From assembly GCA_964187785.1 (NCBI GenBank), contig OZ076410.1:14880001-14944000 (forward strand): 64,000 nucleotides of DNA, written 5' to 3'. The DNA is from Amphiscolops sp. MND2022 (taxonomy: Eukaryota). The notes beneath the pieces were generated by a model. It saw only the letters and a program-made list of their open reading frames with translations. It was not told the origin of the DNA and did not search any database. Below, in pieces: positions 6,961 through 37,024 of this stretch. The translations under genes and the position numbers were made by a program. Every line of letters starts with the position of its first letter. Positions within the stretch are counted from its first letter, which is position 1.

Positions 6961-7493
6961 AGTGTTTGCAAAGCACGGCTTCGCCTCTGTCTTAAAAAAC
7001 TGAAATCTTCGTTTATACGATATAAGAGGTCAATTATACGAATATATACGATATACCAAACCGTGGATTATGCGATTACATGTTATAAGAAGAATTCCTT
7101 CAAATATTATTCTCGGCATTTTCTCGGTTTTCATATTTTTTCCTTAGATACCGTTCCTAGTCCCTAAAATATCTTGAGCCAATCGCAATCCCAGTAGACC
7201 CACAGAACGAAACAAAATTAGCAGCCACCGTCTATAATCCAAACGTTGTTGACGAAAAATTGTAAAGGGTAAAGTTTCTTGAAAGCGTATCTGACCTGGA
7301 GGAGCATCGAGGCATACGTACTTGCAATGTTTTTTTTGTTCTCTGAGATACCATTGATCTCCATCATCAATCAAGTGCCATGTGTGTCATCATGTTGGGG
7401 GGGAGAAGACACACCCCTGGTCTGCATCTTGCAATAATTGGCCTTAAATATTTGATTGGGAAAATTCGGCTAAGCAATTTATCGATCAATATT

Positions 7494-10399: not shown

Positions 10400-10590
10400 A
10401 TTTGTTCGAACAATTTTCAGGTTTGAAGTTTGACATGGTGCTGCATGAAGTCCTCCACGCCCATCCATGCAGAATAACAGCTGTTTCTGAAAGTCAATAA
10501 GAAGTTCTGATTGATAGGCACTGTTACCAATGTTTTGAATGATTAATAATGCTTGATTTCGCGGCACGCTCTAACATTATACGATTATGA
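10400..10590 (+). pseudogene. Probable hAT transposase C-terminal remnant interrupted by the env element (continuous with 7050-7493; uninterrupted copy ~37130-37760)
   Basis: STPIHAE(Q)QLFLKVNKKF resembles LSPMHLEAELFLFVNKTFW (49648 ORF) and ITPEHLEQQLFLRANRKYW (42471 ORF). Confidence 0.4.
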
Positions 10591-11404
10591 CTGTTTTTGT
10601 TTTTAAAGTTCCCATTTGTTTTTTAGTCGGCGCTTCATGAAGTGAAACCGACATTTATAGATTCATTTTTTCAATCCACACGAACTGACGAAAATAGTTC
10701 TTAAAAATTCTACAAAATATTATTGCACCAAATTGCACTATTTGGCCTAGCGAACCGAACTAAAAAGGTTTTTCCTGTTTTCCCACGTAATATACCATAC
10801 CAGGCGAGACCAAAAGGTCCCCCTTTCAATTTTTTTGGCACTGCGATACTATTTTTTGGAAAAATTTTTCCCCAAATGGTCCCCCTTCAATTTTTTTGCT
10901 GTTTTGCGACAAAATGAATGTTGAAAAACCCCAAAGTGTCCCCCCTTTCAGTTTTTCGGCATTGTGAGACTTTTTTAAAAAAATTGTTTCTCTCCAAAGG
11001 GTCCCCTTCATTTTTTTTCATATTTTACAACAGAATGGGTGTTTAAAAATCACGAAGGGACAAAAAAGTTGACAGTTTCAGACGTGTCCCTCACACGTTT
11101 AGCGCGCCACTCGGTCCACTTTTTGGTTTTTCGAGTACTGTAAAATGACACTTGGAAGTCTTTTGCTAGATGTTACATTATTGACACAAAACGAAAACTG
11201 GCTCTGAGTTATGTAATCTGCGGACAGCTTTTCTTTGTTCGAAGAAGTGAATGCATAAGGTCATTATCATTCATTTTGATCAAATTTCATTCAATTGGGA
11301 CAATCGAATCTTTATTCGAGCACCGAGTCTAGCGGATCAAAGTTCGGGCGCTTCCATTGAAAGTTTCTGAGTGTGCCTTATATCAGCAATTTGATGCAAA
11401 CCAA

Positions 11405-12240
11405 TTTTGAAGATTCACGCAGCTGGTACGATACATTGAAATCCGTCTTAAAAACTTATCGAAGTATAATTCATCCTGAATTGAGAAATCCCCTTATGAA
11501 ATGGTTTACGGAAAAAAATGAGAACGAAGTGTACAGCTCTTAAAGCAAAGCTTCTATCAAAAGAGTTTAAATAATACAAATCTTTTCCCTGGCCTATCGA
11601 CGCCGAAACAAAATCATTTCAAAGAATTCGAAGTTGGTGGTTGGGTTCGAGTAAAAGACCCGTTTCGACAAAAAGGAAAAGTGCATTACAAGTTCTTCAA
11701 GCCACAGAAAATACTTGAACAAACAAAAACTTCTGTTACTCTTGATGATGGGCGAACATGGAGTTTATCCCAAATTGCTCCTGCCTCAAATGAAAGAACT
11801 TAAGATCTCAACTACTTTGATGATCTGGAGTTGTCTACTTCGAATAATCATGCCTCCGATGTTCCAATAAGACGGTGTCCTCTCAGGTATACAACAAAAA
11901 CAAATGAATTTCGAGCGGGACAATGAAATGTTAACGTATAGTTTAATATGTTCAAAGGTTCCCACAAATGAATTGTTTTTAAAATTATGATACGATGGCC
12001 TTTTCTAAGAAATTTTCCTCCACTTGATGCACTTGATGCTTGTTAAATTGAGGGGACCGTTTTTGACACTATGGAGGCTCGGCAGCTTGCAGCGTTCTGG
12101 CACCAAGCTCATCTTTTTCTGACTGCCCGTGCTCGAACTCGAGCTAATTCCATTTCAAAAGACGCTTTCACTATGGTCCCAGTTCGAACGGTCCGTTTTT
12201 GAAGCACTTTCCGGAAGAAAAATGATTTTTACACTTGCGA
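11405..12240 (+). mobile_element. Ty3/Gypsy (Mag-like) integrase C-terminal fragment, PPT and LTR start (copies ~16780-17620 and ~17830-18915)
   Basis: VLKTYRSIIHP..SPYEMVYGKKMRTK..FEVGGWVRVKDP..QKGK..TLDDGRTWS; purine tract followed by TGTTAACG at 11929. Confidence 0.6.
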
Positions 12241-12873
12241 TAAGCTAGTGTTATGGGAAAGTGCGGGTGATTTTTTTCCTCGCGACAACTCTCTCGTTTC
12301 AGCCCGCAAGCCGCATAGTTCAGGCATTCGTGGTCTAGTGGTAAGATGCTTGCCTTTCAACCCAGAGGGTTCGTGTTCGAACCTTTGTGTATGCGCCATT
12401 TTTTAAACATTTTTTCAGAAGCAGAAGGTTCTCATAACAAACCGTGGATTATGCGATTACATGTTATAAGAAGAAATCCTTCAGATATTATTCTCGACAT
12501 TTTCTCGGTTTTCATATTTTTTTCCTTAGATACCGTTCCTAGTCCCTGGAATATCTTGAGCCAACCGCAATCGCAGTAGACCCACAGAATGAAACAAAAA
12601 TATCAGCCACCGTCTATATTCCAAACGTTGTTGACGGAAAATTGTATAGGGTAAATTTTCTTGAAAGCGTATCTGACCTGGAGGGGCCTCGAGGCATACG
12701 TACTTGCAGTGTATTCTTGTTCTCTGAGATACCATTGATCTCCATCATCAATCAAGTGCCATGTGTGTCATCATGTTGGGGGGAGAAGACACACCCCTGG
12801 TCTGCAACTTGCAATAATTGGCCTTAAATATTTGATTGGGAAAATTCGGCTAAGCAATTTATCGATTAATATT

Positions 12874-15772
12874 TGACTAATATCTCTACTTTTCAGATGA
12901 GTTTTTATGGCTGGCGGCTGGATGCAGGAATAGAGAGCAGCCAAGATTTCGGAGCATGGATCACAAACCTCAGATTAGTTCTCTTTTTCTTATTCAAAAA
13001 CACAACCATATAATTCTCAAAATAAAGTCAGCACTGATGTTTTTGTATTGATAAGTATTATTATAGTTATTTGTTTAAAGATGCTGATCAAATAGTTCTA
13101 TCATAAGTAAAATAGTTTTAAGGTCAAATATTTAAGAATTCTTTCAATCAGTTCATATGTCCTCAACATGAGATTGTTTCAGCTATGTAATACTTCCTCT
13201 CATCGAAAAACTTCCGTTCTGGAAAAGAGCCACCATACAGTCTGAGGAGTAGTGTAGTGAAGATTAGAAGCTGAAATTGCCAATTGAGTAGTCCATTTCC
13301 AATAAGTCCATTGAAACAGCCCTAGAGAAAAGTTTTGGAGAGCAGCACAAGTCCCAGTTTCATGTAGTTGTGATAAAGTTGTATATTTCATCCAGTTCAG
13401 TTGAACATTGTAGAGCCAAAGATTACTGCATTTATAGTTTACATATACTGCAGAAGAAAATCTATGAAAGGATTTGTTTTGATCAATCTCAATGATGAAT
13501 GAATGGTTGAGCTGAAGGATCATGAAGTCAGGCATTGATATCGGCATGAGCTGCCTCAATATCACTTTGATCATGAACCGTTTGAGCAGGCCTAACTTGG
13601 GAGTTGCTATGTTGTACTATAATGATGAATGAAGGTTGTTGACTGATTGGCAATCTTTGGTTTGGGTCGTTGCTTGTTCAAGCATTGAACTTGACATTAT
13701 GGGGACTTTTGACTTTGAACGTGAAAGATGATATATTGTTCCAATTTTTTTTGAAATTTATCCTCAGCATAAGAATCGATTGTTTCCAATTTCATCATGG
13801 CTTTAGCTCGCACTCTTTTTTTTGTTTTTATCAAGTAGGGATGGAAACATTCTCTATGCCAAATTGTATCGATGATAAATTTACATGAAAAGCAAGTGCA
13901 AAGCTGTTGAGACAAGAAACACGGTTGTTGTGAGCATGAATGAGACTCGGAATGGAACATATTGATTAAATTTTTTTGCTAATGCTGGTTTCAGAAGTTT
14001 CATTTCGGTTGCATATGGTCTGGCACTGTCGATCATGTGTTTGACTTCACGATTCTTTGGTCCTTTTGCTAACTGTAGCTTTACCTCCATCAATAACTTC
14101 ACTTCTGCATCAGCTTTCGATGTGTAGAACGGTAATTCTTGCAAAGGGGGGACTTCCATAACCAATGAAGCGATAGGATTAGGCAAAGAAACTTGCAATT
14201 TGATTGGTGGAATGTGAGCACAACTCGATAGATCCGACCGAATTTTGATATTGTTGGTCATGATTTGCATTCCACATGCTAAAGTGATGAGACATATGCG
14301 GCATCCGCGAAAAGAAGAGCCCTGAACAGATGAAGATGAAACTTCACGAAGGGTAACGGCGTGAGCGGATTGAATTATTCAAATGCCATAGCCTAAATTT
14401 GTTGCTTGTTTGATGGCTGGCAGTTGTACAATAGTAGTATCACACACTGCAAGAGCCTCCGATGCTGTACTTGAATACAAGGTGGCTAAACAAGACGAGT
14501 GTCCCATCTCTGTTGGAACAGACTCTGAACAGATTCGGTAACGAGATGAGCCGAGACAATGCTCAAACTGTTCAGCAGAGAGGACAGATGACTCCATGTG
14601 ATCCTCCGACAAAGCTAAATATGGAGCTTCGATGTTCCATGTAAGAGCCGACTGGGGATCTTCTGGATATGGCATAGGAATTAATTTTGCTTCATAGACA
14701 GTAAAAACCGTTTGCTTAGATGCTAGCGGGATGTTGAGGGTCATCAAAAGACCGTCGGTAACAGTTATAGCATCTGCTAAGAGCTTAGAATCACTGTAAG
14801 ACAGCAGATCTGACATTGGGATAGCGAGAGATAGTCTATCCTCAGCCGTCGTCTGTTGCATCGCAACACTTCTAGAATTGTCAATAACGACTCCGTCGGT
14901 ACTAAGGACATAGGTAAATGACCTCTAAGTATACCAGGAATCGAGTTCAAGATGTTCATTCGGAATGCAAATAATGCCGCGCGAAAGCTTTTAATACTGG
15001 CATGTATCATGGCGAGAAGTGACGAAAGAGTGTCGAAGTTAAAGTTCAACTGCTGATTTGAAAATAGTAGCTGGTTGCAGTTCCGAAGCACGTGAAATTT
15101 GAGCTCAAAAACATCAAACTGTTGTTGGATACGTGCCCCGTTTTTGTTCTGCGTATCAACAAGTTCCCTTTGGATGTCGTGAAGGGCCGCCATTTCCTTT
15201 TCAACCATAAAAAAAACTTTGTCCGTAGGTGATGTAAACTCGGTTACATACTGGGTTAAAACGTCCTGGAAGTCAGATAGTTTGCGAATGTTCTCGGCAT
15301 TTGCCTTCGCATCGTCTTGACAAGAACCAAAAACGCCTTGTAGTCCACAAGAGTCGGAACTACTGAGAGCCACTCCTCCTCCAAATAGGCCAACTGCAGC
15401 AAAAGCCGCTAGTCCCACTTGGGATCCACGTCGGTGGCGAGTATTCCGCTGCTGTTGAGGAGGGGAGAGAAACAGTGCTGTTTCATTACGTTGTAGAGCA
15501 ACATCGAGTTACGCAGTGTGGATTTCAATTTCTATTTGTTGTAACATCCAGGGGACATTGAACGGCGTGGAAATTGTTGAAAAGTGACTTGAAAAATCCA
15601 AGGGACAAAAATCAGATGGAAGTTCCCACATCGTTGCGAGTTTGGCCATTAAGGCCACAATATCTGGTTTAAGTGCGAAGTCATAAGTAGAAAAGTTTTA
15701 AGGCCAAATATTTAAGAAATCTTTCAATCAGTTCATATGTCTTCAACATAGGATTGTTTCAGCTATGTTACA
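12874..15772 (-). mobile_element. env-only LTR element, copy 2 (env remnant ~13750-15600)
   Basis: Colinear with 7494-10399 at an offset of ~5375 bp; ORFs 14777-15418, 14379-14861 and 13881-14270. Confidence 0.7.
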
Positions 15773-18081
15773 ATTTGTTCGAACAATTTTCAGGTCTGAA
15801 GTTTGGCATGGTGCTGCATGAAGTTCTCCACGCTCATCCATGCAGAATACCAGCTGTTTCTGAAAGTCAATAAGAAGTTCTGATTGGTAGGCACTGTTAC
15901 CAATGTTTTGAATGAATAATAATGCTTGATTTCGCGGCACGCTCTAACATTATACGATTATGAATGTTTTTGTTTTTAAATTTCCTATTTGTTTTTTAGT
16001 CGGCGCTTCATGAAGTGAAACTGACTTTTATAGTGACTTTTTTCCAATCCACACGGACTGACGAAAATAGTTCTTATAAAATTCTACATAAAATTATTGC
16101 ACCAAATTGCATTATTTGGCCTAGCGAACTGAACTATAAAGGTTTTTCCTGTTTTCACGCGTAATATACCATACCAGGCGAGACCAAAAGGTCCCCCTTT
16201 CAATTTTTTTGGCACTGCGATACTTTTTTTGGAAAATTTTTTCCCCAAATGGTCCCCCTTCAATTTTTTTGCTGTTTTGCGACAAAATGGATGTTGAATA
16301 ACCCCAAAGGGTCCCCCTTTTCAGTTTTTCGGCATTGTGAGACTTTTTTAAAAAAATTTTGTTTTTCTCCAAAGGGTCCCCTTCAATTTTTTAAATACTT
16401 TACAACAGAATGGGTGTTTAAAAATCACGAAGGGACAAAAATGTTGACAGTTTCAGACGTGTCCCCCCCCCCGTTTAGCGCGCCACTCGGTCCACTTTTT
16501 TGGTTTTTCGAGTACTGTAAAATGACACTTGGAAGTCTTTTGCTAGATGTTACATTATTGACACAAAACGAAAATTGGCTGAGTTAAGTAATCCGCGGAC
16601 AGCTTTTCTTTGTTCAAAGAAGTGAATGCAAAAGGTCATTATCATTCATTTTGATCAAATTTCATTCAATTGGGACGATCGAATCTTTATTCGAGCACCG
16701 AGTCTAGCAGATCAAAATTCGGGCGCTTCCATTGAAAGTTTCTGAGTGTGCTTTATATCAGAAATTTGTTGCAAACCAATTTTGAAGATTCACGCAGCTG
16801 GTACGATACATTGAAATCCGTCTTAAACATTTATCGAAGTATAATTCATCCTGCATTGGGAAATCCCCTTATGAAATGGTTTACGGAAAAAAATGAGAAC
16901 GAAGTGTACAACTCTTGAAGCAAAGCTTCCATCAAAAGAGTTTGAATAATACAAATCTTTTCCCTGGCCTATCGACGCCGAAACAAAATCATTTCAAAGA
17001 GTTCGAAGTTGGCGGTTGGGTTCGAGTAAAAGACCCGATTCGACAAAAAGGAAAAGTGCATTTCAAGTTCTTCAAGCCACAGAAAATACTTGAACAAACA
17101 AAAACTACGGTTACTCTTGATGATGGGCGAACAAGGAGTTTATCCCAAATTGCTCCTGCCTCAAATAAAAGAACTTAAGATCTCAACTATTTTGATGATC
17201 TCGAGTTGTCTTTTTCGGATATCATGCCTCCGATGTTCCAATAAGACGGTGTCATCTCAGGTATACAACAAAAACAAATGAATTTCAAGCGGGAAAATGA
17301 AAATGTTAACGTATAGTTTAATATGTTCAAAGGGTTCCCACAAATGAATTGTTTTTAAAAGTATGATACGATGGCATTTTTTATGAAATTTTCCTCCACT
17401 TGATGCACTTGATGCTTGTTAAATTGAGGGGACCGTTTTTGACACTATGGAGGCTCTGCAGCTTGCAGCGTTCTGGCACCTAGCTCATCTTTTTCTGACT
17501 GCCCGTGCTCCAACTCGAGCTATTTCCATTTCAAAAGACGCTTTTACCATAAGCCCAGTTCGAACGGTCCGTTTTTGAAGCACTTTCCGGAAGAAAAATG
17601 ATTTTTACACTTGCGATAAGCAAGTGTTATGGGAAAGTGCGGGTGATTTTTTCCCGCGACAACTCTCTCGTTTCAGCCCGCAACCCGCATAGTTCAGGCG
17701 TTCGTGGTCTAGTGGTAAGATGATTGCCTTTCAACCCAGAGGGTTCGTGTTCGAACCTATGTGTATGCGCCATTTTTTAAACAATTTTTCCGTTTCAGAA
17801 GTTTCACTTTTTTGGCACTATGAGACTCCCCTCTTTTTGGCTTTGTGAGGTACGCCACATTGAAATCCGTCTTACAAACTTATCGAAGTATAATTCATCC
17901 TGAATTGAGAAATCCCCTTATGAAATGGTTTACGGAACAAAATGAGGACGAAGTGTACAGCTCTTATAGCAAAGCTTCCATCAAAAGAGTTTAAATAAAA
18001 CAAATATTTTCCCTGGTCTATCGACGCAGAAACAAAATCATTTCAAATAGTTCGAAGTTGGTGGTTTGGTTCGAGTGAAAG

Positions 18082-18582: not shown

Positions 18583-19974
18583 GAGTGAAAGACGCGATTT
18601 GACAAAAAGGAAAACTGCATTACAAGTTGTTCAAGCCACAGAAAAAACTTAAACCAACAAAAACTACTGTTACACTTGATTATGGGCGAACATGGAGTTT
18701 ATCCGATATTGCTCCTGCCTCAAATGAATGAATTTAAGATCTCAACTATTTTGATTATCTGGAGTTGTCTCCTTCCAATAATACGCAATCGGATAATCAT
18801 GCCTCCGATGTTCCAATAAGACGGTGTCCTCTCGAGTATACAACAAAAACAAATGAATTTCAAGCAAGACAATGAAATGTTAACGTATAGTTTAATATGT
18901 TCATAGGTTCCCACAAAGTAATAGTTAGTGCGGGTGCTTTTTTTCCGCGCGACAACTCTCGTTTCAGCCAGCAAGTCGCATAGTTCAGGCGTTCGTGGTC
19001 TAGTGGTAAGATGCTTGCCGTTCAACCCAGAGGGTTCGTGTTCGAATCCGTGTGTATGCGCCATTTTCTTTACAAATATTCCAAAGCAGAGGGGCCTCAC
19101 TTTTTCGGCACTATGAGACTCCCCCTTTTTTCGGCTTTGTGAGACTTTCGAAAGTTTTTAATGTCCTCAAAAGATCCTCCCTTCAATTTTTCTGATATTT
19201 TGCAACTGAACGAATGTTTAAAAATCCTAAAGGGTCCCTTCTTTCATATTTTTGGCACTATGACACGTAAAAAACCTCAATTTTCGTTTTCGAAAAGTTT
19301 CCAAAGTCTCAAGGGTTCCCATTTGATTTTTTGCAACAGAATGGATGTTAAAAAATCTCAAAGGCCCCCCCTTTACAGTTTTCGGCATTTTGAGATTTTT
19401 CAAAATGAACAATTTTTGACTCAAAGTTAGGTTTCTCAGGCCCAGCACGCCATGTCCGATTTTTGTGCGACTTTTTTCTAATTTGTTTTCATCGAACCTC
19501 CTCAATTTTTACTAGCCTCATTTTTTACTAGGAACGAACCGTTTTGCGAGCATAAAAGATTGCTCAAGGTTTTCGGCACTGTGCGATTTACCGGAGACCT
19601 TCAGTTAAACTTTTTCCAAAAAATGACGATTTTTTTTCTTAAACATTCTGTTTTTTTTCAAAAAAAATTGTTTTTGGTTGAGAAAGATGGGTTTCCAGTT
19701 AAAAAAGAATAGTTTTAGAGATCTATGGGTATCTCTTCGGGTATTTTTGGCGCTGTAAAATTGATGAAGTTTTAACAATAATTTCTTTTTACGCTTGGTT
19801 CTCCGTATGATGTTTTTTTTGGTTTTATTCAAAAATTTGTGTGGTCGAATAACAAAAGACGACTGATTTGAATGAAGGTTAAATTAATAATGAATGAATG
19901 ATAAGAAATCAACTCTATTTATATCAAATCATTGTCCCAAAGGGCAGGATTACATTCTAAACGGTACTATTAAA

Positions 19975-20090
19975 CCTTTCCTTTTGGACGGTACCTTTCC
20001 TTTTCGCCGTTCCTTTTGGACGGTACCTTTCCTTTTGACCGGTCCTTTTGAACGGTACCTTTCCTTTTGGCCGTTCCTTTTGGACGGTTG
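19975..20090. repeat. ~32-bp tandem repeats (CCTTTTGGACGGTACCTTTCCTTTTCGCCGTT) in the LTR U3
   Basis: Three GGTACC-containing units here; two units in the copy at ~36895-36972. Confidence 0.8.
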
Positions 20091-20096
20091 CACTGC

Positions 20097-21026
20097 TTAT
20101 GGGGAAGCATTTTCCGATATCAGTGAAGCAAAGTAATCGGTGTCGTTTACAGTTTGTCGAAACCGAAGCATCAAATTAGCAAGTGTTGTCTGCTTGGCCA
20201 GGTCTTTCACCTTTTTCGCAAAAACCTTGACTCTTTTCCGCAATGTTGACCTCGGAATGTCCATTATTTGCGCCACTAACCAAGGACGGTAAACCAACAC
20301 TGCAGCATAAGTAGCTCGGGTCATGTAATTTGGCTTGTCGTTTGCTTCAATCTGGTCGTACTTCAAACCAGCGAAACGTCCCATGGCTCGGCACATATTG
20401 TTGATCTCAAAACCTGTCATGCCACTCTTTCGTGAAATAACCCAATTACCAAATTTGGCTCCTGGAGGCACTTTTTTGGCTAAACCTTCACTTTGAAAGG
20501 GAAGGTTGATGTCATCAATCTCCGGCGTAAGGTCACGGATTTGATCGTCGACCTCGTTGACATCGTCTAATTTGCTTATCTGCGATGTGGACAAGCTGGC
20601 CAGCTTATTCAACGGTACCAGGTTGTTGTGCCACTCGTTAGCTGGGGGTCGTGCCAATTCTTTGGCTGCCGAGGACCGTTCTTTCTTGCCGTCCCTTTTC
20701 TTCTGCGGCCTTTTGAGTGGTGGTTCTTCATCGGTCTCGGACGAACTGCTGCTCGAATCTGAAGAGCTGGATAAGTGGTGTTCACGCTGTTTCTGTGGTG
20801 TTGGGTTGCGGGGAAGTGTTCTAGGTGAAGGATTGAGAATAATTTGCTCGTTGTCCAGTGGCACTTGAGCGAACAACTCAGTTGACTGTGTAATAGCAAC
20901 CATTCCATTCTGCGGCCTAATAGACATCAATGTCAAATTGGCGAGGTTTGGTAACACCCCTCCGAGTTGCATTTTGGCGGCCCTGTAGAGTTGCAGAAGG
21001 GACATTTCGTCTGAGCTGATTTCCAT
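20097..21026 (-). CDS. LTR-embedded 309-aa protein of unknown function with a Ser/acidic tract, basic NLS-like segment and psq-like HTH motif
   Basis: Uninterrupted ORF, in-frame upstream stop, ATG context GAAATGG; KRPQKKRDGKKER; LVAQIMDIPRSTLRKRVK. Confidence 0.7.
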   Translation of the reverse strand: MEISSDEMSLLQLYRAAKMQLGGVLPNLANLTLMSIRPQNGMVAITQSTELFAQVPLDNEQIILNPSPRTLPRNPTPQKQREHHLSSSSDSSSSSSETDEEPPLKRPQKKRDGKKERSSAAKELARPPANEWHNNLVPLNKLASLSTSQISKLDDVNEVDDQIRDLTPEIDDINLPFQSEGLAKKVPPGAKFGNWVISRKSGMTGFEINNMCRAMGRFAGLKYDQIEANDKPNYMTRATYAAVLVYRPWLVAQIMDIPRSTLRKRVKVFAKKVKDLAKQTTLANLMLRFRQTVNDTDYFASLISENASP

Positions 21027-21368
21027 TTCTGCCGACCGTTTGGTGCTGTTTTTTGAAGAGAAGTGATTCTATGGGTTGGAAACGATCCTTTGTGTCGTTT
21101 TGAAGCGTGGTCACGTTTCTGACTTCTGATGACTTCTGAAATGACTAATATGAGTCATCATACTACTACGTAATTACGTAATCATGATAAGTCGCCTCAA
21201 CGCATTGTTGTCCATCAATCAAACAGCTTGAATTATACGTTTAATATAATGTGTTATCCAAAAAAATAAAGAATAGGTGACTAAAATTGGAATCGAAATC
21301 TTTTTTCCGATATCCAGTGTGGGTAGGTTACAGAGGTCCCCCATAAAACTACGGAGTGTTGACATATA

Positions 21369-22585
21369 TCATGCGAATGAAACGGTTTTCTGTACTCGTT
21401 GTTCCCTGCAAGTAGGACAAAACCACTTGCCTTGAGGAGGTTTGTAAACTCCTACACACGGAAAATGAAACCATTGTATGACACAATAAGGACCGTCACA
21501 GCCGATCATATCGGTTAAAAGGTCCCCCACAAGTACAAAAGGACCCATTGTCCTCTGACAATTTTGGCACAGTTGGTTTGATATGTGGCTCTGATGGAAG
21601 GTAGCAAGGTTTAACTCTGGTTAAACTCACTCGGGTAGGGCCGTTCGTGCATTGTATCAACATTGTTTTATCATTGCGTTCCAGAACAGGAAAAGGACTA
21701 CTATAGGGTGCCTCCAAGGGACGCCTGGTACGAACAACTTGTAGCCAAACATGACTGCACTCCTGAAGGTCCCGAGGAACATATTGCCAGAATTCTATGA
21801 CTGAATGAAACGACCGGTAAAGCTTGAGTCCACAGTGAAGGTGAGGCTGCTAAAAAAGCTTTTAATGTTCGATGGTACCTTTCAATTTTACCATATTTTA
21901 AATTCGGCGAACAAATCAGATTCGAACAGGCGTCCTTGATCGGTAGTAATGTAGAGTGGGACTCCGAACCGCGAAAACCAAGTAGAAATAATGGTTTCAG
22001 CCACGACTTCTGCGGTGATAGAACTAATGGGAGTAGCTTCTATCCAGTTTGTTGATCGATCGATGAAGGAAAGAATTTATCTATTCGGGCAATTCGACAC
22101 TGCAGGCAGAGGACCTACTATGTCCAAATGTAAATACTGGAAACGGGCTGGATAACCTGTGGTTGATGCAGGAGAAGTTATTGTGTGTCGTGTAACTTTG
22201 CTTTTCTGACAGGGTAAACATTCCTTGCACCAACCCTTCACGTCCGAAGCCAAATGCGGCTAGGTGAAACGTGCTGAAATTAGTTCATTAGTTGCCTTCC
22301 AGTTCGGATGTGACATTTTGTGAAAGTTGAGGAACAATTTTATCCGTAACTCTGGTGGAACTATTGGGCGGGGAATGAGAGTATTATCGCAGAGTAATTT
22401 TATGTCTGGTGGAACAGTAACAATTTTGGTGCCTTGACTGTACACCTGGCACATTTCCTCCTTAAACTCCTGCGTTTGCGTTTGAGCGATTGCCTGTAAA
22501 TCGAAAGGGTCACAAGTTACAGCAGATACAAGTTTCGGCTGTTGTACGCAACTCTCTTCTTCTTCGGGACAAGATAGACAATCAG
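21369..22585 (-). pseudogene. pol: Gypsy integrase (zinc finger, DDE core, GPY/F) with C-terminal ING-type PHD finger; frameshifted
   Basis: HKMSH..CKECLPCQKSK; HLDIVGPLP; [10 protein letters not shown]; [11 protein letters not shown]; [11 protein letters not shown]; APYSSPFPV; PHD at 21408-21540. Confidence 0.85.
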
Positions 22586-23417
22586 TGTAACGGCTGCTTG
22601 ATCCCTTCAATTGACCAAACTTTACGCCGCCCTGAATTCGGTGCTCGGCACTGCGGATCGTTACCGAACACTGCTTGCTTCTTAGATTAAAAGGACTGTA
22701 TCGTGACTTAGTAGGATCCAATGATCCCGAATTGCACTTCTTCCTTGTCTCTTAACACGTCCAACTCTCCACGAGTTGAGAGTAACTAACTTAATCGCCC
22801 TAAGTCTTTGGCGAAAAGTCGAAAAGAGGTGAAGAAATGAATTGAGAATTGAAATGGTCCTGAGACCCAACTTGAATACAGCTTTCCAATCAATTTGTGC
22901 CTATCTAGTTATGGTATACATATCGTTTACAATTATTCGATAAATATGAGTTGAAATATGAAGTATAAATAAATGACATTTAAAGCATAATATGAAGTTA
23001 TTGGCTATGTAAACAAACCATAGTGTGGGTATAGCGTGTTGGTTAGGTGGGCTCTGAAGCATGTTTACACAATGTAAATATCATAAATTTCAACAGAGTT
23101 ACATTTCCTTCAAGGTCAAATTAGAAAGTCATATAATAATTAAATACATCAAAATTGGGTAATTCATGGGGTCCGACCAAGGTCACTTTGGGTGTTAATT
23201 GCTCTGAACCCAGGGGAGATACGGGGTAGGGTGTTTCGAGGGAAAAGTTAGGGTAGCACCACTACTATATGTGTGCCAAGTTTCAAGGTGATTGAATGAG
23301 TGGTTTACCGGGACGGGGGGGTGGTGTTTTATTGGGATGCACCATTTCTGGTGCAACTTGTAATTTTCCAACTCAAATTTTGATAAATTTTCTAAGTGTT
23401 TTGAGTTATAAGTTTCA

Positions 23418-26400
23418 TCAGTCACGTTCGAATTTGAGTTTCTGATCTCGCAATTGACTGGCGCCAACATTGCCGGCCCTGTTTTTCTCCCGAAAAACAC
23501 TTTTATAGAACAGGGGTGCCAGTCTCACTACTGGTCGTTTCAGTTTGTCATCAATTTTCGTTGTGTTTCTGCGAACTTCAGTTTCGTAGTCATGTTTGCC
23601 GGTTGTTTGCTGTGTTCTTTCTCTACTGCAATGCTTCTCCAGCTCATAATCCATTTCACTGACCATACAGTTGTTTTCGACAAGTTGACATAACACAAAA
23701 TATTTCCAAAAAACTGTTGTCTCATTTGAAGTGATAGTTTTCCCAACTTTCCCAAACTTCATCATCAACGTCCGACATTCATTGAGTTCTCTCGATTGCT
23801 TTTCTTTTGAACCTTCAAAAGGTATGATACAAAATTGCTTCAGTACATTTAACTCAACTTCCATAATTACTTCAACATCCAAAGAATAGATTTCCAGATA
23901 AGTCGAAAATGTCTCCAGACAGTTTCCCAAGATTTGCTCTGCTGCATTATTCCTCATCAAAGTTGACTGACCGCGGGGAAGGTATGTCCAACTGAGTTCG
24001 TTCTCTAATCGTTCCATTCTCAAGCTTTCAATTTGGCGTTCGTGAAAGATTATGGAATCATCCATCATCATCACCAATAGATGAAGAGAATTTCCAACAT
24101 TACTGCGACTGGAGTTTTTACCTTTGTGTTCAATGCTCTCTTTGCATCCAATAGGAGGGGATTTGTGTTGTGAACTCAGTCGCTGCGCTGCATTTTGCTC
24201 TTTGCTTACAGACACGTCGTTTTTCGTAGCTACATCCGAGTTTTCTCCAAACAACTGCAATGCCGTGAAGTTTTGCTTCCGCTTCTGTTTGTAGAGATTC
24301 ACTGTGCTTCTCTCACTACAAAACTTCAATTTCTTTTCATCTAGGTTTTTAACCGGCTCCGATAGATCAGCAAAAACTTCCAATTTACCAAAAGACCCAT
24401 GCCGAGTCCACATTGTCTTGAAAAGTGCAGCCGGCCCATTGCAAGATCCGTCGCTCCAACTTGTTGCTGTTGGGATTTTCAAAGGACGAATTTGCATTCT
24501 CGTAACTGATAAGTTGTCTCTCAAATCATGTAGCCAAAGTGGCTCATCTTGCGGTGTTCCATTCACGTTCAACTGAGCTCCTTCCGCCATTTCCTGCATC
24601 AGTTTCCAGTTATGTTCAATCTTCCAAGATCTTTTCTTCAGTTGCTTGCGGTGGCCGTTGCTCAATTGAGTTTCATCAATGACGTTAGCTTGTGCCACTG
24701 CGTCCATCCCTGAGTTTCCATTACCATTCCAAGGGTTCCATATACTACTATAACTCGGGATAGTTTCTTCTAAAAGACTTTCTTCATTGAAGTCGAAATC
24801 CGTTTTCTTTCCAAAGGTTGCATTCACGATTTGTGTTTCAATTTCAGCATGGCCTTTCGCGGGTTTATCATGTTTCATTGCAACGTGACATAGCTTTCGA
24901 TACATGACTATTTCATTCAACTCTTCTGGCAGTGTATATCGTTGCTCATTCACAAAGTCATAACATTTGACAAATTCATAGCATTTGTTTCTTTCTTCAA
25001 GAAGTAGAGTAATGTCATAGAACACTGTCACTTGGAATAGTTTCCCCTGTCGCACGTCCTGTAGTACGGTGGAAACTCCTGCCATCACTTGCAGCAGTTC
25101 CAATTGCACACTGAATTCTTCCGAAGTTTCATTGTTCGATGCAAACGCTAAGCTTCGATGCTCTTGCATTGTTTCAGTCATTCTGTAATCCAAAGTCTCC
25201 TCTGTTTGCACTACCAAGTGCTCACTCATGACCAAGTGAATCTCTTCTTCCAAAACTTGTTCTGTATCCACGAGGAGGATTTCTGATCGGAAGTCTTGCC
25301 AGCCATTGTCTACAAAGAACGTTTCTGGCCAGTTCCACATCCATTCTGCGATTAGATTTTTCGAAGTTCCTTTGTTTGCATTGCTTTCAAAATTTGTCAT
25401 ATTTGAATCTTCATGTGCTTCACGTTTGATAGTTTTGTCTTGCAACTTTCCATGGTTTGGACACTTGTCTGAACACTTCATCTGCTCAGGTTTCCATTTT
25501 TTCACTGTACACTTTCCTTTTGTTGTACAGTCAAGAGCTTTGAGCGAAGCCCTTTCTTCTTGCTTGCCCAAAAGTTCGTCTTTTCTTCTTTTCAGCGATT
25601 CATTGCGATCGCCTGAACTTTCTTCGCTTGAAGTATGCCTTGGTTGAGTTTGCTTTACAATTGTCATTGTTGAACTACTTTCAACGCTTTCACGGTTAGA
25701 GCGCAAATGTGATCCAACAATGCTCTTTGAATCAATTTGCCCAAAACAGAGTTCTTTGTTGTTTCTCAGGTGTGACTCCTTGTCCGTCACCTCATTCATG
25801 TTGTTCTGAGAGAGTGCATTTCGCTCACACAGTTCAGCTCCTGTAGAAGGTTTCATTGAGATCGAGGATGCATTGATGGTCCGATAACATTTCTGTGGGC
25901 CTTTACTTGGTTGCAATTGCTTTGTCACTTTCTGTGGTTGTGTCAGTTTGAACTTAACTCCATTTCGCGTTAATTCCATGTCGTTTTTTAGGATTTTTTT
26001 GACTCTAGCGTTTTCTTCTTCGAGGTTAGCAATTTCTAGTTCTTCTGCGAATATCCTCATGTCCATCTCATCTTGTTTCTTTCGGATCTCGGCTTTGCGT
26101 CTTGCGGCAGCTAGCTGTTCATCAATTTCATCTTGTTTCTTCATTGCTTCCAATTCTAGAAGAAGTATTCGTTTTGCGTTTGATGACTTAGAACTAGCTG
26201 TTGTTATGTTGCCCTTCGAGGTTGCTTTGACTGACCCTTTGTTGCTTTGTTCGGGTAACACTTTCACATCCCTGATTGATTTAATCACATCAGAGGGGTT
26301 GGATGCTCCAACAACACGTCGTTCCTCTTCAGTTACCCTGCGTGACTGTGTCAGTGATTTCTTTTCACTAGTTGCTTCCACTAAGCCATTGCGTTCTGTT

Positions 26401-26960
26401 CGATTGAAGCTACTTTGCTTGAGCTTCCTTGTGTGAGTGCATCTCATAGTCGCATTTGTGGAGGTTCGACTTGCCTCTTGGCGAAGTTTCGTTTTGTGTG
26501 TCTCATCTTTTGGACCCTTCATCATTGTCTTTACATCAGGGAACCAATATCCCAAGCTGTCTTCTAATTTTACAAAGAATTCTTCCCATTCAGTCACACT
26601 TCGACTGAGCTGTCTTTGCTTTTCTTCATTCGTGAGGTCCAACATAAGATCTACGTTATGCAAAATTGCTTGTTTGTTTTCGCGATATTCGAATACCCAA
26701 TCAATCAATTCACCTTTGCAAAGACTAGCGCTTTGCTCGTCCAGCTTGTCATCCAACTCTTTAATCAGAGTCCGTAGTCTTCCAACTTGGGTGGCCACAG
26801 CGTCCACATAAAAGCGCCACACGTACCAGTCGGAATCATTTTCCAAATCTCTTGATCTGAGGTCCATCAGTTCTTGGCTCTGATTTGTGTTTGTTTGATC
26901 AAATACATTTGTCATTCGAGGATGTTGCATCTCGAGCATTTCTTTCTTTCTGGCTTTCAT
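23418..26960 (-). CDS. 1180-aa BEL-derived gag-like polyprotein with vestigial pol motifs
   Basis: Single open frame; N-terminal coiled coils; BEL-type C-terminus KRPVVRLAPL..NRAGNV; no recognisable RT YxDD, protease DxG or full DDE triad. Confidence 0.75.
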   Translation of the reverse strand: MKARKKEMLEMQHPRMTNVFDQTNTNQSQELMDLRSRDLENDSDWYVWRFYVDAVATQVGRLRTLIKELDDKLDEQSASLCKGELIDWVFEYRENKQAILHNVDLMLDLTNEEKQRQLSRSVTEWEEFFVKLEDSLGYWFPDVKTMMKGPKDETHKTKLRQEASRTSTNATMRCTHTRKLKQSSFNRTERNGLVEATSEKKSLTQSRRVTEEERRVVGASNPSDVIKSIRDVKVLPEQSNKGSVKATSKGNITTASSKSSNAKRILLLELEAMKKQDEIDEQLAAARRKAEIRKKQDEMDMRIFAEELEIANLEEENARVKKILKNDMELTRNGVKFKLTQPQKVTKQLQPSKGPQKCYRTINASSISMKPSTGAELCERNALSQNNMNEVTDKESHLRNNKELCFGQIDSKSIVGSHLRSNRESVESSSTMTIVKQTQPRHTSSEESSGDRNESLKRRKDELLGKQEERASLKALDCTTKGKCTVKKWKPEQMKCSDKCPNHGKLQDKTIKREAHEDSNMTNFESNANKGTSKNLIAEWMWNWPETFFVDNGWQDFRSEILLVDTEQVLEEEIHLVMSEHLVVQTEETLDYRMTETMQEHRSLAFASNNETSEEFSVQLELLQVMAGVSTVLQDVRQGKLFQVTVFYDITLLLEERNKCYEFVKCYDFVNEQRYTLPEELNEIVMYRKLCHVAMKHDKPAKGHAEIETQIVNATFGKKTDFDFNEESLLEETIPSYSSIWNPWNGNGNSGMDAVAQANVIDETQLSNGHRKQLKKRSWKIEHNWKLMQEMAEGAQLNVNGTPQDEPLWLHDLRDNLSVTRMQIRPLKIPTATSWSDGSCNGPAALFKTMWTRHGSFGKLEVFADLSEPVKNLDEKKLKFCSERSTVNLYKQKRKQNFTALQLFGENSDVATKNDVSVSKEQNAAQRLSSQHKSPPIGCKESIEHKGKNSSRSNVGNSLHLLVMMMDDSIIFHERQIESLRMERLENELSWTYLPRGQSTLMRNNAAEQILGNCLETFSTYLEIYSLDVEVIMEVELNVLKQFCIIPFEGSKEKQSRELNECRTLMMKFGKVGKTITSNETTVFWKYFVLCQLVENNCMVSEMDYELEKHCSRERTQQTTGKHDYETEVRRNTTKIDDKLKRPVVRLAPLFYKSVFREKNRAGNVGASQLRDQKLKFERD

Positions 26961-27769
26961 TTGTTCAGATTGCAGTTTATTGTTTAACTGAGGACTTTCT
27001 GACTACACAATAGTTTCTTGTCGACTTTGTCACTTTTCCCAAAAACAGCAATTTGATAGATCTGAAGTGTCAACTGCTCAACCCAGTAATCAGTCGCCAA
27101 TTCTTGAAGAATCAACCCAAAATGTCAATTATGCTTGCCTTCTTTGACGAACTTGATTGTTTCGGTGGATCTCGTCCCAATGACTCGATCCTTTTGCTTT
27201 ACTTGGTGGATATGCTTGCAGCGACGTCTTAGTTCAAACCTTTGCTTTCAATTAGGAATACGTTTCCCAAGGATACAACTCGTCCCAAACTGGAATTGAA
27301 GCACACTTGCCTCCAGAGTGCTGCTAAAGCCCAACTCCCAGAGTAAACAACCAATCCAGTTCCAAATCGCCCAATAGTCCAATATCAAAGCCCCAGTGTA
27401 CACTTTCCCAGAGTTCCAATCACCAACTGCAGACCCAGTCTCCACAGTTAGTTGTCGTTCGTCGTGAATAGTTGTTTCAGCTACTTATCGCGATTCCGTT
27501 TGAATGCAACGACTCTTGCAATACCTTTCGGTTGCTGTGCGAACAGGATCACCTGCTGCCACTTCTAGGTTTGGAAGGTCCCTACGAATAGGCTTGTCCT
27601 CCCAGCTCTCTGGTTTGCCAATGAAACCAGCACGGAAGCTTTTTCCAAGCTTCGTGTTACTTGAACAGATAGATGTTGTGTCACCCGTTTGATGACTCTA
27701 ACTGCTAACGTGTCTTCCACCACGAATGCTATCCACCCACGATGAAGACGACGTTCCTCTTGTAGTGTC

Positions 27770-27905
27770 CACCCAGATTGATGTCCACTCCAACTGTTGA
27801 TGTCCGCCCAATGTGTTGATGTCCGCCCAATGTGTTGATATCCGCCTCACGTGATGTCCGCGCCAAACTGATGATGTCCGGGCCAAACTGATGATGTCCG
27901 GGTCG
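27770..27905 (-). repeat. 18-20-bp tandem repeats (CGGACATCA-core) in the BEL leader just after the PBS
   Basis: About 7 imperfect units, e.g. CGGACATCATCAGTTTGGC x2 and CGGA(C/T)ATCAACACATTGGG x2. Confidence 0.8.
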
Positions 27906-28799
27906 GCGGACCAAATGTAACGGCTGCTTGATCCCTTCAATTGACCAAACTTTACGCCGCCCTGAATTCGGTGCTCGGCACTGCGGATCGTTACCAAACA
28001 CTGCTTGCTTCTTAGATTAAAAGGACTGTATCGTGACTTAGTAGGATCCAATGATCCCGAATTGCACTTCTTCCTTGTCTCTTAACACGTCCAACTCTCC
28101 ACAAGTTGAGAGTAACTAACTTAATCGCCCTAAGTCTTTGGCGAAAAGTCGAAAAGAGGTGAAGAAATGAATTGAGAATTGAAATGGTCCTGAGACCCAA
28201 CTTGAATACAGCTTTCCAATCAATTTGTGCCTATCTAGTTATGGTATACATATCGTTTACAATTATTCGATAAATATGAGTTGAAATATGAAGTATAAAT
28301 AAATGACATTTAAAGCATAATATGAAGTTATTGGCTATGTAAACAAACCATAGTGTGGATATAGCGTGTTGGTTAGGTGGGCTCTGAAGCATGTTTACAC
28401 AATGTAAATATCATAAATTTCAACAGAGTTACATTTCCTTCAAGGTCAAATTAGAAAGTCATATAATAATTAAATACATCAAAATTGGGTAATTCATGGG
28501 GTCCGACCAAGGTCACTTTGGGTGTTAATTGCTCTGAACCCAGGGGAGATACGGGGTAGGGTGTTTCGAGGGAAAAGTTAGGGTAGCACCACTACTATAT
28601 GTGTGCCAAGTTTCAAGGTGATTGAATGAGTGGTTTACCGGGACGGGGGGGTGGTGTTTTATTGGGATGCACCATTTCTGGTGCAACTTGTAATTTTCCA
28701 ACTCAAATTTTGATAAATTTTCTAAGTGTTTTGAGTTATAAGTTTCATCAGTCACGTTCGAATTTGAGTTTCTGATCTCGCAATTGACTGGCGCCAACA

Positions 28800-30560
28800 A
28801 TCAGCTACCACATTGCTGTCACCAGCAATGTGAACAATGTTGTCAATAAATTCCGACAAAATCGAAATTTGCTGGGATTGTCGAGGAGAGTGGTCGGTTG
28901 TTTTTCGAAAGGACGCAACAATGGGTTTGTGGTCGGTAAAAACGACACAGTAACAACCTTCAATAAACCGTCGAAATTTCTGTGTTGCGGCAAAAATTGA
29001 TAAAAGTTCTTTATCAAACACAGAATAATTGCGTTCTGCGACAGATAATTTTCGTGAAAAGAAGGCTAGAGGCACGTTTGTCCCGTCCGTTCTGTTGTTG
29101 TGTAAAACTCCGCCAATTGCTTTGTCAGAAACATCAGTAGTGAGAGTGAGAGTGAGAGTACCATCTGGAGACAAATAGTGTAACATGGTACGTTCAGAAA
29201 GCTTGTTCTTCAATAATACCAAAGCGTCATCGTGGAAGGGTTCCCAACGCACTGGTGTGTCGATAGTCAAATTTTAAGATTAGGATCGCTGACTATCATT
29301 GAGTAACGTTTGGAGAGGTTCGACTATTTCTGCATAATGGGGAAAATGTTGTCAATAAAAAGAGAACATTCCCATCATAGTTCGCAAACTTTTGTAACTC
29401 GTGGGACGCGGCCATCGTTGAATAGCTTCGACTTTGTCCGCTTTGGGTGTAAACCTTCAGCAGTGATCAAAAATCCAAAGAATTCGATCTCATTTTTCAT
29501 CCATTGATATTTCTTTATAGAGCAGCGCAGTCCCTATTGCTTCAGGCGTTCCAATACCGTTTCGATGTCTTTCAAGTGAGTTGTTATATTGTCTGATGCA
29601 ATTAGGACGTCGTCCACGAACGTGAAAATCATTACTAATCCTTGGAAAACTGTGTTCATGAAGCGTTGGAATGTTTGTCCTGCATTTCGGAGACCAAATG
29701 GCATTCGTAGAAATTCAAAAAGACCAAACGGTGTTGTCACAGCAGTTTTCTCTATGTCATCGGGATGTACTGGTATCTGATGGTATGCTTTTACTAAATC
29801 CAAATTTACTAAAAACTTTTTTGCCATAAAGATTGAAATCCGATAGTTGTGGAAGGGGGTAGCAATCCCTTTTAGGGACTGAATTTATTCGTCGGTAATC
29901 TCTACAAAACCTCCAATCGTTAGGTTCCTTTTTAGGTACCATATGCAATGGGGAGGCGTATTGGCTGCATGGTGGACAACATATCCCTGTTGCTATCATG
30001 GAATCGAAACACTGCTTGGCGATCCTGTATTTCTCAGGGCACAAACGCCTCGGGCTGCCATACGAGCCTTTACCCGTCAGTTCAATACGATGTAGCGTTT
30101 GGTGTTGAGCTCTGCTGTTGAAATCAACATCACCGAAATCTTCTGCATTTTTGATCATTATTGATTTCAGCTCGTCGTTTCCGATATCAGGTATCACTGT
30201 CTCAACTTTGTTCACAGAGACGTGGTTGCACTTTTTAAAATGAGTTGCAGTAGACAACAATGTTGTGTTATCCTTGAGGCGGCCGTTTTTGCAATCAATT
30301 GAGAAATCGTTCAAAGACAAGAAATCAATACCAAGAATATTACACGACACGTCAGCGACGAAAAAGGTATGGCTGATGCACCGTGGTAAGGAAGGGATAT
30401 CATTTGGTATAGTAATTTTTCCGTAAACCTTCAACGCGTCACCTTTAATGGTGGATAGAACTGCGTTTGAAGGCAGAATAGTAACTGGATGGATTAAATT
30501 GGGTTTAACAATGGACACCATTGATCCTGTGTCTATAGGAAACTTTTGCTGGCTAGAATT
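28800..30560 (-). pseudogene. pol: Gypsy protease, RT and RNase H, frameshifted
   Basis: PIDTGSMVS; NILGIDFL; SPLHMVPKKEPNDWR; LDLVKAYHQIP..PFGLRNAGQTFQR..FVDDVLI; TTDVSDKAIG..KELLSIF..TDHKPI..NVVAD. Confidence 0.9.
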
Positions 30561-30599
30561 GATAGAAGCAGCGATCTAAATGAATAAATCACCCCCAGT

Positions 30600-31790
30600 G
30601 CAAGCTGCCACTATGCTAGGGGTTCCTAGTTTGACGCTGGGTTGTTTGGGGTTGCTGGTCGTGATGAAGCATCAATCAGCTGTGGTTTCTGACCAGGCCA
30701 CTTACACCAGGGTTTACACCGCTTGGCATTATTTGCATAGAAGACATGAAATCGACAAATTTTTAGTTTTTGCCCCGCGCTGAAGGGAAATATCCCTCCC
30801 TTTTGCTGTCTAGGATTGGATTGAAAGTTTCTGTTCGGGGAAACAGAAACATCTTCGGGCTTAGGATCGGGTCTTACTGCTGCTACGTGGTAATCGAACG
30901 TTGAATACTGGTATATCGTATCCGCAAGTTTAGCGAAATCGTCCAGGGCCAAATTATGAAGTGTGGACAGGGCAACACGTGTCGTTGGGGTTAACGCTTG
31001 GAGGAACTTGTGGCGTAAAAAGTGGTCATTTTATGCGTAGGAAACAGACTGACGGTTTTTGGCCGTCAAGGGAAATTGAACCTTCTCCGATAACTCCTCC
31101 AATAACTCCTGTCGACTTTTTTGGTAGATTCCAATTATCTGCTCCTTTAGAGATTCGTAAGAAGTAACGTCCAGTGGGAGGTTGATTGCGACGTCCTCCG
31201 GTAATGCGCCCATGACGTGGTGAAACTTTGTTTGGGAACTGGTGATATTTGCTATTGCAAATGGGGACTCGAGTTGTCTGAACCAGACTTGCGGCTTGCT
31301 TCTATAGAAAGTTGGAGGGTGGGCGGAAGTAGGTCGAAGGAACGGAATCGAAAATCAGAGTTAGTCCACAGGTCGACATACCAAATTTTTGAATGGTATC
31401 GGAACAACTCGGATCGAAATTTTTATAACGTAGTCAGATATGTTCACATACAGTGCCCTAGTGCCCTGAATGCAGGAGCGAAGCGAAGTGGAGCGACGTG
31501 CCATATGGCCATGCCTCAATGTTGCTACTTGGCGAAGTGAGCGAAGCGACCGAGCCATACAACAAACACGATAAAATTCGACCGCATTCCATTCGATCCA
31601 TGCAGTTCGATCAAAAGGTTCGACCTCTGTCCTTTCGACGAGAAAAATTCGACCTATTTACAGCCACCCAAAGTTGGAGGTTTGATTATTCTGCCCACTT
31701 GAGCATTGTTTGTGCGATCACCGCTACCTCCGTTAGTTATGTGATTATAAGCAGTGGTAGAGTCTTCCAATTGTGCTGGATCTTCCATCA
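30600..31790 (-). pseudogene. gag: Gypsy gag, frameshifted
   Basis: PQVWFRQLESPFAIANITSSQTKFHHVMGALPEDVA; KICRFHVFYANNAKRCKPWC. Confidence 0.75.
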
Positions 31791-32225
31791 CGTCGGGGTT
31801 AAACTTTTTCCAAAAAATGCTTTTTTTTCTTGAATTTTCTGGTTTTTCTCGAAAAAATTGTTTTCGGTTGAGAAAGATGGGTTTCCAGTTGAAAAAGAAT
31901 AGTTTTAGAGATCTTTGCGTATCTCTTCGGGTATTTTTGGCGCTGTAAAATTGATGAAGTTTTAATAATTTCAAAACAGGTTGGATAGGAAAGAAGAACT
32001 GAATTGAGATTGATTAGTTATGATCAGACTTGGTTTATGTATATACAATTGCAATTGATGGTAGAAATGGTTCAGCATCGGGTATATATAGCACCGCGAC
32101 AGGTACCTGTCAGTAAACAAAAATTGTGCGGTATCAAGAGTTGTCTGTTGTATCGCACAAACAGGTACATCAATGTGCGACATCAAAGATTGTGTGTGCG
32201 ATGTCATCTGGCAGGTACTTGAACC

Positions 32226-36244: not shown

Positions 36245-36754
36245 CCTCTCGTCAACTAAACAGCAGCTTCTCTGGTCGAGAGTGTCGTGGTGCCGTCATC
36301 GTGATCTGCGCTGGTGAGGCTGTGATCAGCTAAGTAGATGGCGTCGTCTGGGAAGCTGCTGGGCCCAAAACCTTTCAAAACAGGTTGGGTAGGAATGAAG
36401 AACTGAATTGAGATTGATTAGTTATGATCAGACTTGGTTTATGTATATACAATTGCAATTGATGGTAGAAATGGTTCAGCATCGGGTATATATAGCACCG
36501 CGACAGGTACCTGTCAGTAAACAAAAATTGTGCGGTATCAAGAGTTGTCTGTTGTATCGCACAAACAGGTACATCGATGTGCGACATCAAAAGTTGTTTG
36601 TGCGATGTCATCTGGCAGGTACTTGAACCTTAGGGGTCGTGGCTCATCATTGATCGTTCCCGCCTTGCGAGGCGGATGGCAAACCTTGATAAACAATAAT
36701 TTCCTTTTACGCTTGGTTCTCCGTATGATGTTTTTTTTTTGGTTTTCAAAAATT

Positions 36755-37024
36755 TGTGGGGTCGAATAACAAAAGACGACTGTTTCGAATGAAGGTTAAA
36801 TTAATAATGAATAAATGATAAGAAATCAACTCTATTTATACCAAATCATTGTCCCAAAGGGCAGGATTACATTCTAAACGGTACTATTAAACCTTTCCTT
36901 TTGGGCGGTACCTTTCCTTTTGGCCGTTTCTTTTGGACAGTACCTTTCCTTTTGGCCGTTCCTTTTGGACGGTTGCACTGCTTATGGGGAAGCATTTTCC
37001 GATATCCAGTGTGGGTAGGTTACA
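36755..37024 (-). repeat. Short (270-bp) version of the Gypsy LTR
   Basis: Matches both ends of 19838-21332 but lacks 20122-21311; flanks AATT/AGTT in a host repeat whose empty site lies near 6940. Confidence 0.8.

Follow-up and report, generated by a model that had tools for sequence, protein, structure and literature searches.

Within a 64,000-nt stretch of contig OZ076410.1 from Amphiscolops sp. MND2022 (the window, whose positions serve as coordinates below) lies a Gypsy retrotransposon, all features of which are read on the minus strand. A short 5'-type LTR of 270 bp (36755..37024) is accompanied by the remnant of a tRNA-Trp primer-binding site (PBS; 31787..31797), by gag with a CX2HX9CX3C motif (30626..31791), and by the protease-reverse transcriptase (RT)-RNase H part (28797..30671) and the integrase part (21369..22585) of pol, the latter ending in a C-terminal PHD finger. 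Both gag and pol are broken in this copy. The integrase and the polypurine tract (PPT; TGGGGGACCTC, 21333..21343) adjoin a long 3' LTR of 1,495 bp bounded by TG...CA (21332 to 19838), and inside this LTR, upstream of a TATA-like box predicted from sequence (TATAAATA, 19916..19923), lies ORF3 (20097..21026). As an earlier note on this DNA had recorded, the frame is open for 309 aa, and a Ser tract, a basic segment and LVAQIMDIPRSTLRKRVK are all present. The accessory protein that it encodes has a conserved N-terminal 60 aa, a disordered Ser/basic linker and a helical C-terminal domain, in which a helix-turn-helix (HTH) is predicted (20196..20285; residues about 248-277) from an AlphaFold model and a motif in homologs.

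The two LTRs share a 30-bp head (21303..21332) and a tail. The last 12 bp of the head, followed by an A-run, form direct repeat 1 (21303-21314), while direct repeat 2 (GATATCGGAAAA, 20110..20121) lies in the final codons of ORF3 and supplies the first bases of the tail held in common with the 5' LTR. In the short LTR (37024 to 36755) the same head is fused straight to the same tail, without the 1,193 bp between the two GATATCGGAAAA copies. This segment missing in 5' LTRs (20122..21314) comprises a leader and nearly all of ORF3. The shared U3 tail contains the TATA-like box and a variable number of tandem repeats of ~32 bp (19975..20095), whose length class agrees between the two LTRs of an element.

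The window copy has suffered considerable damage, with two frameshifts in gag, three frameshifts and five stops in aligned pol, and a BEL/Pao-like insertion in pol (22586-28799); the insertion carries direct repeats of 884 bp (99.7%) as well as an open frame of 1,180 aa with no Pfam match. A Copia element whose 320-bp LTRs are 97.8% identical, with two long frames, is found close to the Gypsy element's 5' end (31969-36691), and a repeat of ~350 bp in the 5' leader (31320-31670) recurs in or beside family copies L065, L074, L076, L098 and L107. Elsewhere in the window, a 5.4-kb tandem duplication (7053-17805; 95%) contains fragments of an envelope/fusion-like protein, a likeness that we take from a cleavage-like RHRR followed by a hydrophobic stretch; no Pfam match was obtained. 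Approximately 270 bp of 3' flank recurs behind the short LTR (36692-36754 with 31798-31968), marking the window element as a rearranged duplicate, and the remaining genome was therefore examined. This sample comprised 132 ORF3 protein matches together with about 90 fetched stretches.

In full copies the PBS (TGGTGACCCCGACGTGAT) is complementary to the 3' end of genomic tRNA-Trp, Gag carries the CHCC motif CX2HX9CX3C (CRFHVFYANNAKRCKPWC), and the integrase, a Pfam rve integrase, has the GPY/F motif as APYSGPFPV. Target-site duplications (TSDs) are 4 bp long. The Gag CHCC motif has been defined for the CsRn1 clade (in the part of PMC2582038 drawn on here). On these three tested sequence features the family qualifies as a CsRn1-type Gypsy.

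The earlier note had set an uninterrupted ORF3 against the broken gag and pol of the same copy, and this is borne out, with 10 breaks in gag and pol. As evidence for a gene the intactness is weak, because 10 breaks in 2.87 kb predict only ~3.2 in 927 bp; the chance of zero breaks, calculated post hoc, is about 0.04. Over 25 copies, breaks per kb are 2.4 for ORF3, 2.9 for gag and 3.1 for pol, and the ORF3 frame is complete without a stop in eight genome copies. The case for a real gene is built on selection between lineages and on remote homologs. Between two subfamilies, A and B, the synonymous sites of ORF3 are saturated (pS 0.76-0.87), and dN is lower in the C-terminal domain (0.35-0.46) than in the N-terminal half (0.56-0.70), in support of ORF3 as a selected protein gene in U3. 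Within subfamily A, w is 0.42 for variants present in at least three copies versus 0.85 for private variants (p=0.029), and no in-frame stop common to several A copies of ORF3 was seen. In the same subfamily gag (w 0.15) and pol (0.20) are under stronger selection than ORF3, shifted-frame controls give 0.66 and 1.50, and the ORF3 result is not significant when the threshold is set at two copies (p=0.17) or when residues 129-309 are taken by themselves. Taken together, these comparisons indicate that the ORF3 protein is under purifying selection. The fetched stretches around genome matches place ORF3 in this LTR, with no independent insertion seen among them. A reading of the segment as an independent insertion with a 12-bp TSD was ruled out, since ORF3 continues through repeat 2 into the tail and the segment of subfamily B lies in the same place with a different repeat.

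A profile search recovered remote homologs of ORF3 of 297 and 301 aa with 24-30% identity, plus two fragments, from JGI and ENA records, and these retain the Ser tract, an N.L.P block and the HTH motif. Scans of metagenome and viral sequences for contexts of two homologs (P0022, P0034) yielded no usable context, and one 45-residue match (L132; E=4e-5). A phytoplasma repeat protein (P0024) was dropped as a homolog, the match being judged due to chance. A search for longer or fused homologs among 7,999 candidates of 528-2000 aa found none, which is weak evidence. The AlphaFold model of residues 121-309 has a pLDDT of 76.6 and a pTM of 0.73, with low confidence in the N-terminal half of the protein; helices 248-255 and 259-277, separated by a short turn and with a conserved hydrophobic pattern, reach a pLDDT of about 90-95. 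Weak Pfam and fold matches are to HTH_8, ParB, DnaA-IV and sigma-4 types, including sub-threshold HTH_8 matches in two homologs (E=0.002-0.005). In the fold comparison the best Z was 4.5 (Spo0J/ParB, DnaA), with top rows rich in HTH proteins and none at Z>=5. Foldseek returned no match to PDB or viral structures at E<=0.001, the PDB sequence search was empty, and every match in the Atlas search fell below 0.9. The description of this domain as pipsqueak-like is not supported, although an HTH-like C-terminal domain is, by the model and the homolog motif. The short-turn motif ending STL..R recalls Pipsqueak, but the HTH_psq Pfam profile matched neither the window protein (P0001, E<=0.1) nor any of 16 members (E<=1), and the ORF3 HTH is set within a helical domain of ~150 residues that has no significant structural neighbor. 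Pfam, PDB sequence and Foldseek searches found no significant homology to known transcription factors. ORF3 represents an accessory family of HTH-like proteins, unmatched in Pfam, whose remote homologs come from metagenome records. We lean slightly toward ORF3 being a nuclear DNA-binding regulator of the element, and our best guess is a DNA-binding regulator that could act by activation or repression.

Full-length elements of the family follow a single plan, namely short LTR, PBS, gag, pol, PPT and long LTR, with a 5' LTR of about 270 bp, a 3' LTR of about 1,450-1,500 bp, and ORF3 in the 3' LTR only. Identical LTRs at insertion, a standard feature of LTR retrotransposons, are not seen here. 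A census of subfamily A made with the LTR head alone, and hence independent of ORF3, located 49 sites. Long heads account for 25 of these, all behind internal sequence (24 behind an intact PPT and one behind integrase sequence), whereas none of the 22 short heads lies behind a PPT; the remaining two are aberrant inverted heads. Over all loci at the census stage there were 54 long and 36 short heads, and no long head followed host DNA. Among 24 A elements the 4-bp TSDs are perfect in 15 and have one mismatch in three, while six have a truncated end. Three young elements with 0 mismatches between their tails already have a short 5' LTR. A solo short LTR with a TSD (L117) is expected under an asymmetric design. 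Some tandem arrays (L070, L083, L090) have middle units in which a long LTR precedes a PBS. Tandem arrays of the long LTR plus PPT-side integrase sequence also multiply ORF3 locally (L064, L072/L073, L099, L103/L104). One exception in subfamily A (L068) has a 5' LTR that lacks the head and retains the last ~87 bp of the ORF segment, and that may be a long 5' LTR after truncation; among the elements examined none had a complete long 5' LTR. The sequences give us high confidence that LTR asymmetry is family-wide and built-in.

Subfamily B, with pol about 60-80% identical to that of A, keeps the asymmetric design with a different head and a different repeat, GGATGTCGGAAAA, matched at both positions. 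Its LTRs start and end with TA rather than TG...CA (L081-L094, L108). Of 34 B heads, 30 were classed as 17 short without a PPT, 10 long with a PPT, one long with a damaged PPT and two short with a PPT; the other four are long with a PPT. Three B elements have two short LTRs (L152, L157/L158, L160/L173), which is the product that a skip during minus-strand synthesis would give. In two short-short B elements a duplication (88 bp or about 48 bp) is present in both LTRs. A sister family, C, has an integrase about 49% identical, the same PBS and a PHD finger, and is without ORF3; its LTRs are equal, at about 174 bp, in 18 of 19 loci, the remaining locus being truncated. Family C (L133-L151) is likewise CsRn1-type, with long open pol frames and LTRs that end TG...AA rather than TG...CA. 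ORF3 and asymmetry therefore co-occur across the three families compared. The suggestion that the PHD integrase and the ORF form a two-part system fails as an obligatory pairing, since family C has the one without the other.

Variation within elements links each short LTR to its own long partner. The distance from repeat to TATA-like box falls into three classes (148-149, 160-161 and 181-182), and the class is equal in both LTRs of 11 of 14 elements (permutation p=2e-5), or of 9 of 12 after three near-identical copies are collapsed (p=9e-5). The tail lengths of the other three of the 14, the window's element included, are unequal, and because of these outliers the rank correlation of tail length is not significant (rho 0.45, p=0.11). 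An element's own 3' tail ranked first by mismatch rate in only 8 of 16 cases. Both the head and the tail of 5' LTRs bear variants of the element's own 3' LTR, with head variants common to the 5' junction and the own 3' head in L061/63/66, L072, L106/119, L111 and L085. In L106/119, L075 and L111 the letters, at few informative sites, are of the head type right up to where the repeat ends, placing the switch point in the A-run at the end of repeat 1. The TSDs and the variants common to both LTRs indicate that the asymmetry is renewed at every transposition.

Two aberrant insertions bear on how the short LTR arises. At L114 (L114:3080-3944; G000 C1:63405079-63405943) an 865-bp unit consists of a short LTR, PBS, partial gag and an inverted head, flanked by a perfect TSD (GTGG); the join lies where gag and the head's complement share 11 nt of microhomology. 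The same gag join occurs at another site, L102 (C6:32858157-32859010), with a less clear TSD, and the two sublineages are separated by branches with 99-100% support. Both mini-elements were apparently integrated through two U3 ends, and the simplest reading is that on two occasions a nascent head strand came off its template and used gag for priming. As two independent mis-jump products, they support release of the head strand and priming elsewhere, and with it the plus-strand jump proposed below.

In the standard scheme of reverse transcription, plus-strand strong-stop DNA gives rise to the 5' LTR and the minus strand to the 3' LTR (as outlined in the portion of PMC3187697 used here). A skip confined to strong-stop synthesis would therefore yield elements with a short 5' and a long 3' LTR, with the gene still transmitted. 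On the reading that we consider probable, this is a CsRn1-type Gypsy that carries a selected, predicted-HTH gene in the 3' LTR only, owing to a programmed plus-strand jump between short direct repeats in each round. Reverse transcriptase would prime at the PPT, copy about 30 nt and stall in the A-run, the strand would realign from repeat 1 onto repeat 2, strong-stop DNA of the plus strand and hence the 5' LTR would be short, and the 3' LTR, completed on the full-length minus strand, would remain long. We infer this jump from integrated copies alone. Template switching is about as frequent on DNA as on RNA templates and increases with homopolymer runs, and repeats of 61 bp are deleted during reverse transcription at 5-47% (both from the same portion of PMC3187697). 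As a rule short repeats are seldom deleted, and a near-complete jump at 12-14 bp would therefore need a block. A template hairpin was considered as the stop signal and rejected: over repeat 1 hairpins reach only -2 to -7 kcal/mol as raw energies, with little strength in the youngest copies and no conservation in subfamily B. A lead for the stop in the A-run is A-tract termination, which we presume to resemble that at the HIV central termination sequence. Splicing was also discarded as a source of the short form, as inspection by eye found no GT-AG or AT-AC pair at any junction register.

The skipped segment may hold more than a coding frame. A motif that we take to be AP-1-like, TGA(C/G)TCA, is present in 23 of the 25 leaders of subfamily A and 12 of the 13 of subfamily B, against about 0.04 per leader in shuffles (the motif having been chosen post hoc). 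In the window a tandem pair (21142..21157) lies ~115 bp 5' of the ORF3 ATG, and its position within the skipped segment suggests a separate candidate promoter for ORF3. ORF3 could then be a transcription unit of its own, with its promoter in the skipped segment and polyadenylation in the tail, and the jump would serve to keep this unit from the 5' LTR, where its promoter would fire into the gag-pol promoter. To the fuller proposition, in which an obligatory third strand transfer edits gene and promoter from the 5' LTR, the 3' LTR transmits them, and the gene represents a new HTH family controlling the element, we give an even chance.

Several other explanations of the asymmetry have to be weighed. 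The skip might take place at another step of reverse transcription, either because the minus strand, in completing the 5' LTR, skips from repeat 2 to repeat 1 or because a co-packaged short-U3 RNA supplies the strong-stop DNA. The integrated product would be identical, short-short elements are present in subfamily B, and intermolecular plus-strand transfer has been proposed for the sporadic asymmetric LTRs of HIV-1 (in the part of PMC9278108 consulted). Subfamily A, however, has no short-short element among 49 heads, the long-long and long-short products predicted from two-template mixing were not seen, and the letters within the repeat, where informative, match the head and not repeat 2; since the mis-primed head products also point to a free plus-strand head, we regard this alternative as unlikely. 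Still less probable is that both LTRs are initially long and that the 5' segment is then deleted by recombination between the repeats, before or after integration, under the direction of ORF3 or through microhomology repair by the host. Deletions of this kind typically have direct repeats at their flanks, L068 could be left over from a long 5' LTR, and a minority of the members in sub-threshold Atlas look-alikes belong with integrase-related families. Such a process would leave unexplained the sparing of the identical 3' LTR, and it sits poorly with youngest copies (0 tail mismatches) that are already short, with the failure to find a complete long 5' LTR, and with the lack of any recombinase match for ORF3 in Pfam and fold searches.

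A further possibility accepts the asymmetry as described and questions the function of ORF3, which might act in the jump itself, as a roadblock or nucleic-acid chaperone, or as an anti-silencing factor, rather than as a transcription regulator. In its favor, the three families compared have either both ORF3 and asymmetry or neither, and the protein is without significant homology to known transcription factors; the joint presence of ORF3 and asymmetry is equally explained by keeping the ORF3 promoter from the 5' LTR, and the HTH, the basic NLS-like stretch and the acidic/Ser tract would fit a regulator that binds double-stranded DNA. We consider such a role conceivable, though doubtful. Very improbable, and already largely refuted, is the idea that the pattern arose in assembly or from one ancestral deletion that segmental duplication then spread. 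The window element is indeed rearranged and several loci are tandem arrays, but flanks and TSDs differ across many contigs, the two subfamilies do not have the same repeat pair, and the LTRs co-vary within elements, all of which speaks against it. The programmed plus-strand jump remains our preferred reading.

Within the CsRn1 clade (CsRn1, PwRn1, AgCR, Boudicca and Saci-3), the part of PMC2582038 drawn on here describes a tRNA-Trp PBS, the CX2HX9CX3C motif, 4-bp TSDs, a GPF motif and overlapping gag and pol frames, all held in common with the Amphiscolops family. According to the same text, the LTRs of a PwRn1 copy are of identical size, unlike those found here, and the third ORF of Boudicca and Saci-3 is env-like, in contrast to an HTH-like ORF3 located in the 3' LTR only; the PHD finger that ends the integrase is a further difference from the clade as described there. 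The rule of two identical LTRs is stated in the literature (in the section of PMC3601003 cited here), and no case of systematic LTR asymmetry was found in a literature search whose scope left most subscription journals and Repbase Reports outside. The model of reverse transcription, LTR-finding software and the dating of insertions all rest on the two LTRs being identical at insertion. Families with LTRs unequal by design would therefore be missed or mis-annotated by LTR-pair finders. Such a design would imply that a programmed jump of reverse transcriptase at a 12-14 bp repeat can succeed in nearly every round while staying confined to one strand, and would let U3 carry a gene without placing that gene ahead of the main promoter.

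MMTV sag, HIV nef and foamy virus bel/tas resemble ORF3 as protein genes located in U3, 3' of the PPT. Since U3 sequence is copied into both LTRs of these retroviruses, the analogy drawn in the earlier note is apt as to position and misses the key point, that ORF3 is kept out of the 5' LTR. Here gene and candidate promoter are removed from the 5' LTR, and no sequence similarity to sag, nef or bel was found. Non-identical termini derived from split repeat blocks are known from the DIRS group (PAT, Ngaro, TOC1). DIRS-group elements use a tyrosine recombinase and produce no TSD, in contrast to the DDE integrase, PBS, PPT and 4-bp TSDs of the present family. Asymmetric LTRs that arise in reverse transcription have been reported for HIV-1, where, in the portion of the source cited, they are sporadic (26 of 88), mostly 3' deletions and variously placed (PMC9278108); here the asymmetry is near-universal, uses a fixed repeat pair, shortens the 5' LTR and is compatible with continued transposition. 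Self-activating vectors likewise use reverse transcription to lose exactly the sequence that lies between two direct repeats; as far as the cited portions describe them, they are engineered, depend on long repeats and lose that sequence from their progeny (PMC3187697; PMC3678115). The Amphiscolops family differs in that the loss is natural, occurs at repeats of 12-14 bp and would be strand-specific, with the gene inherited through the 3' LTR.
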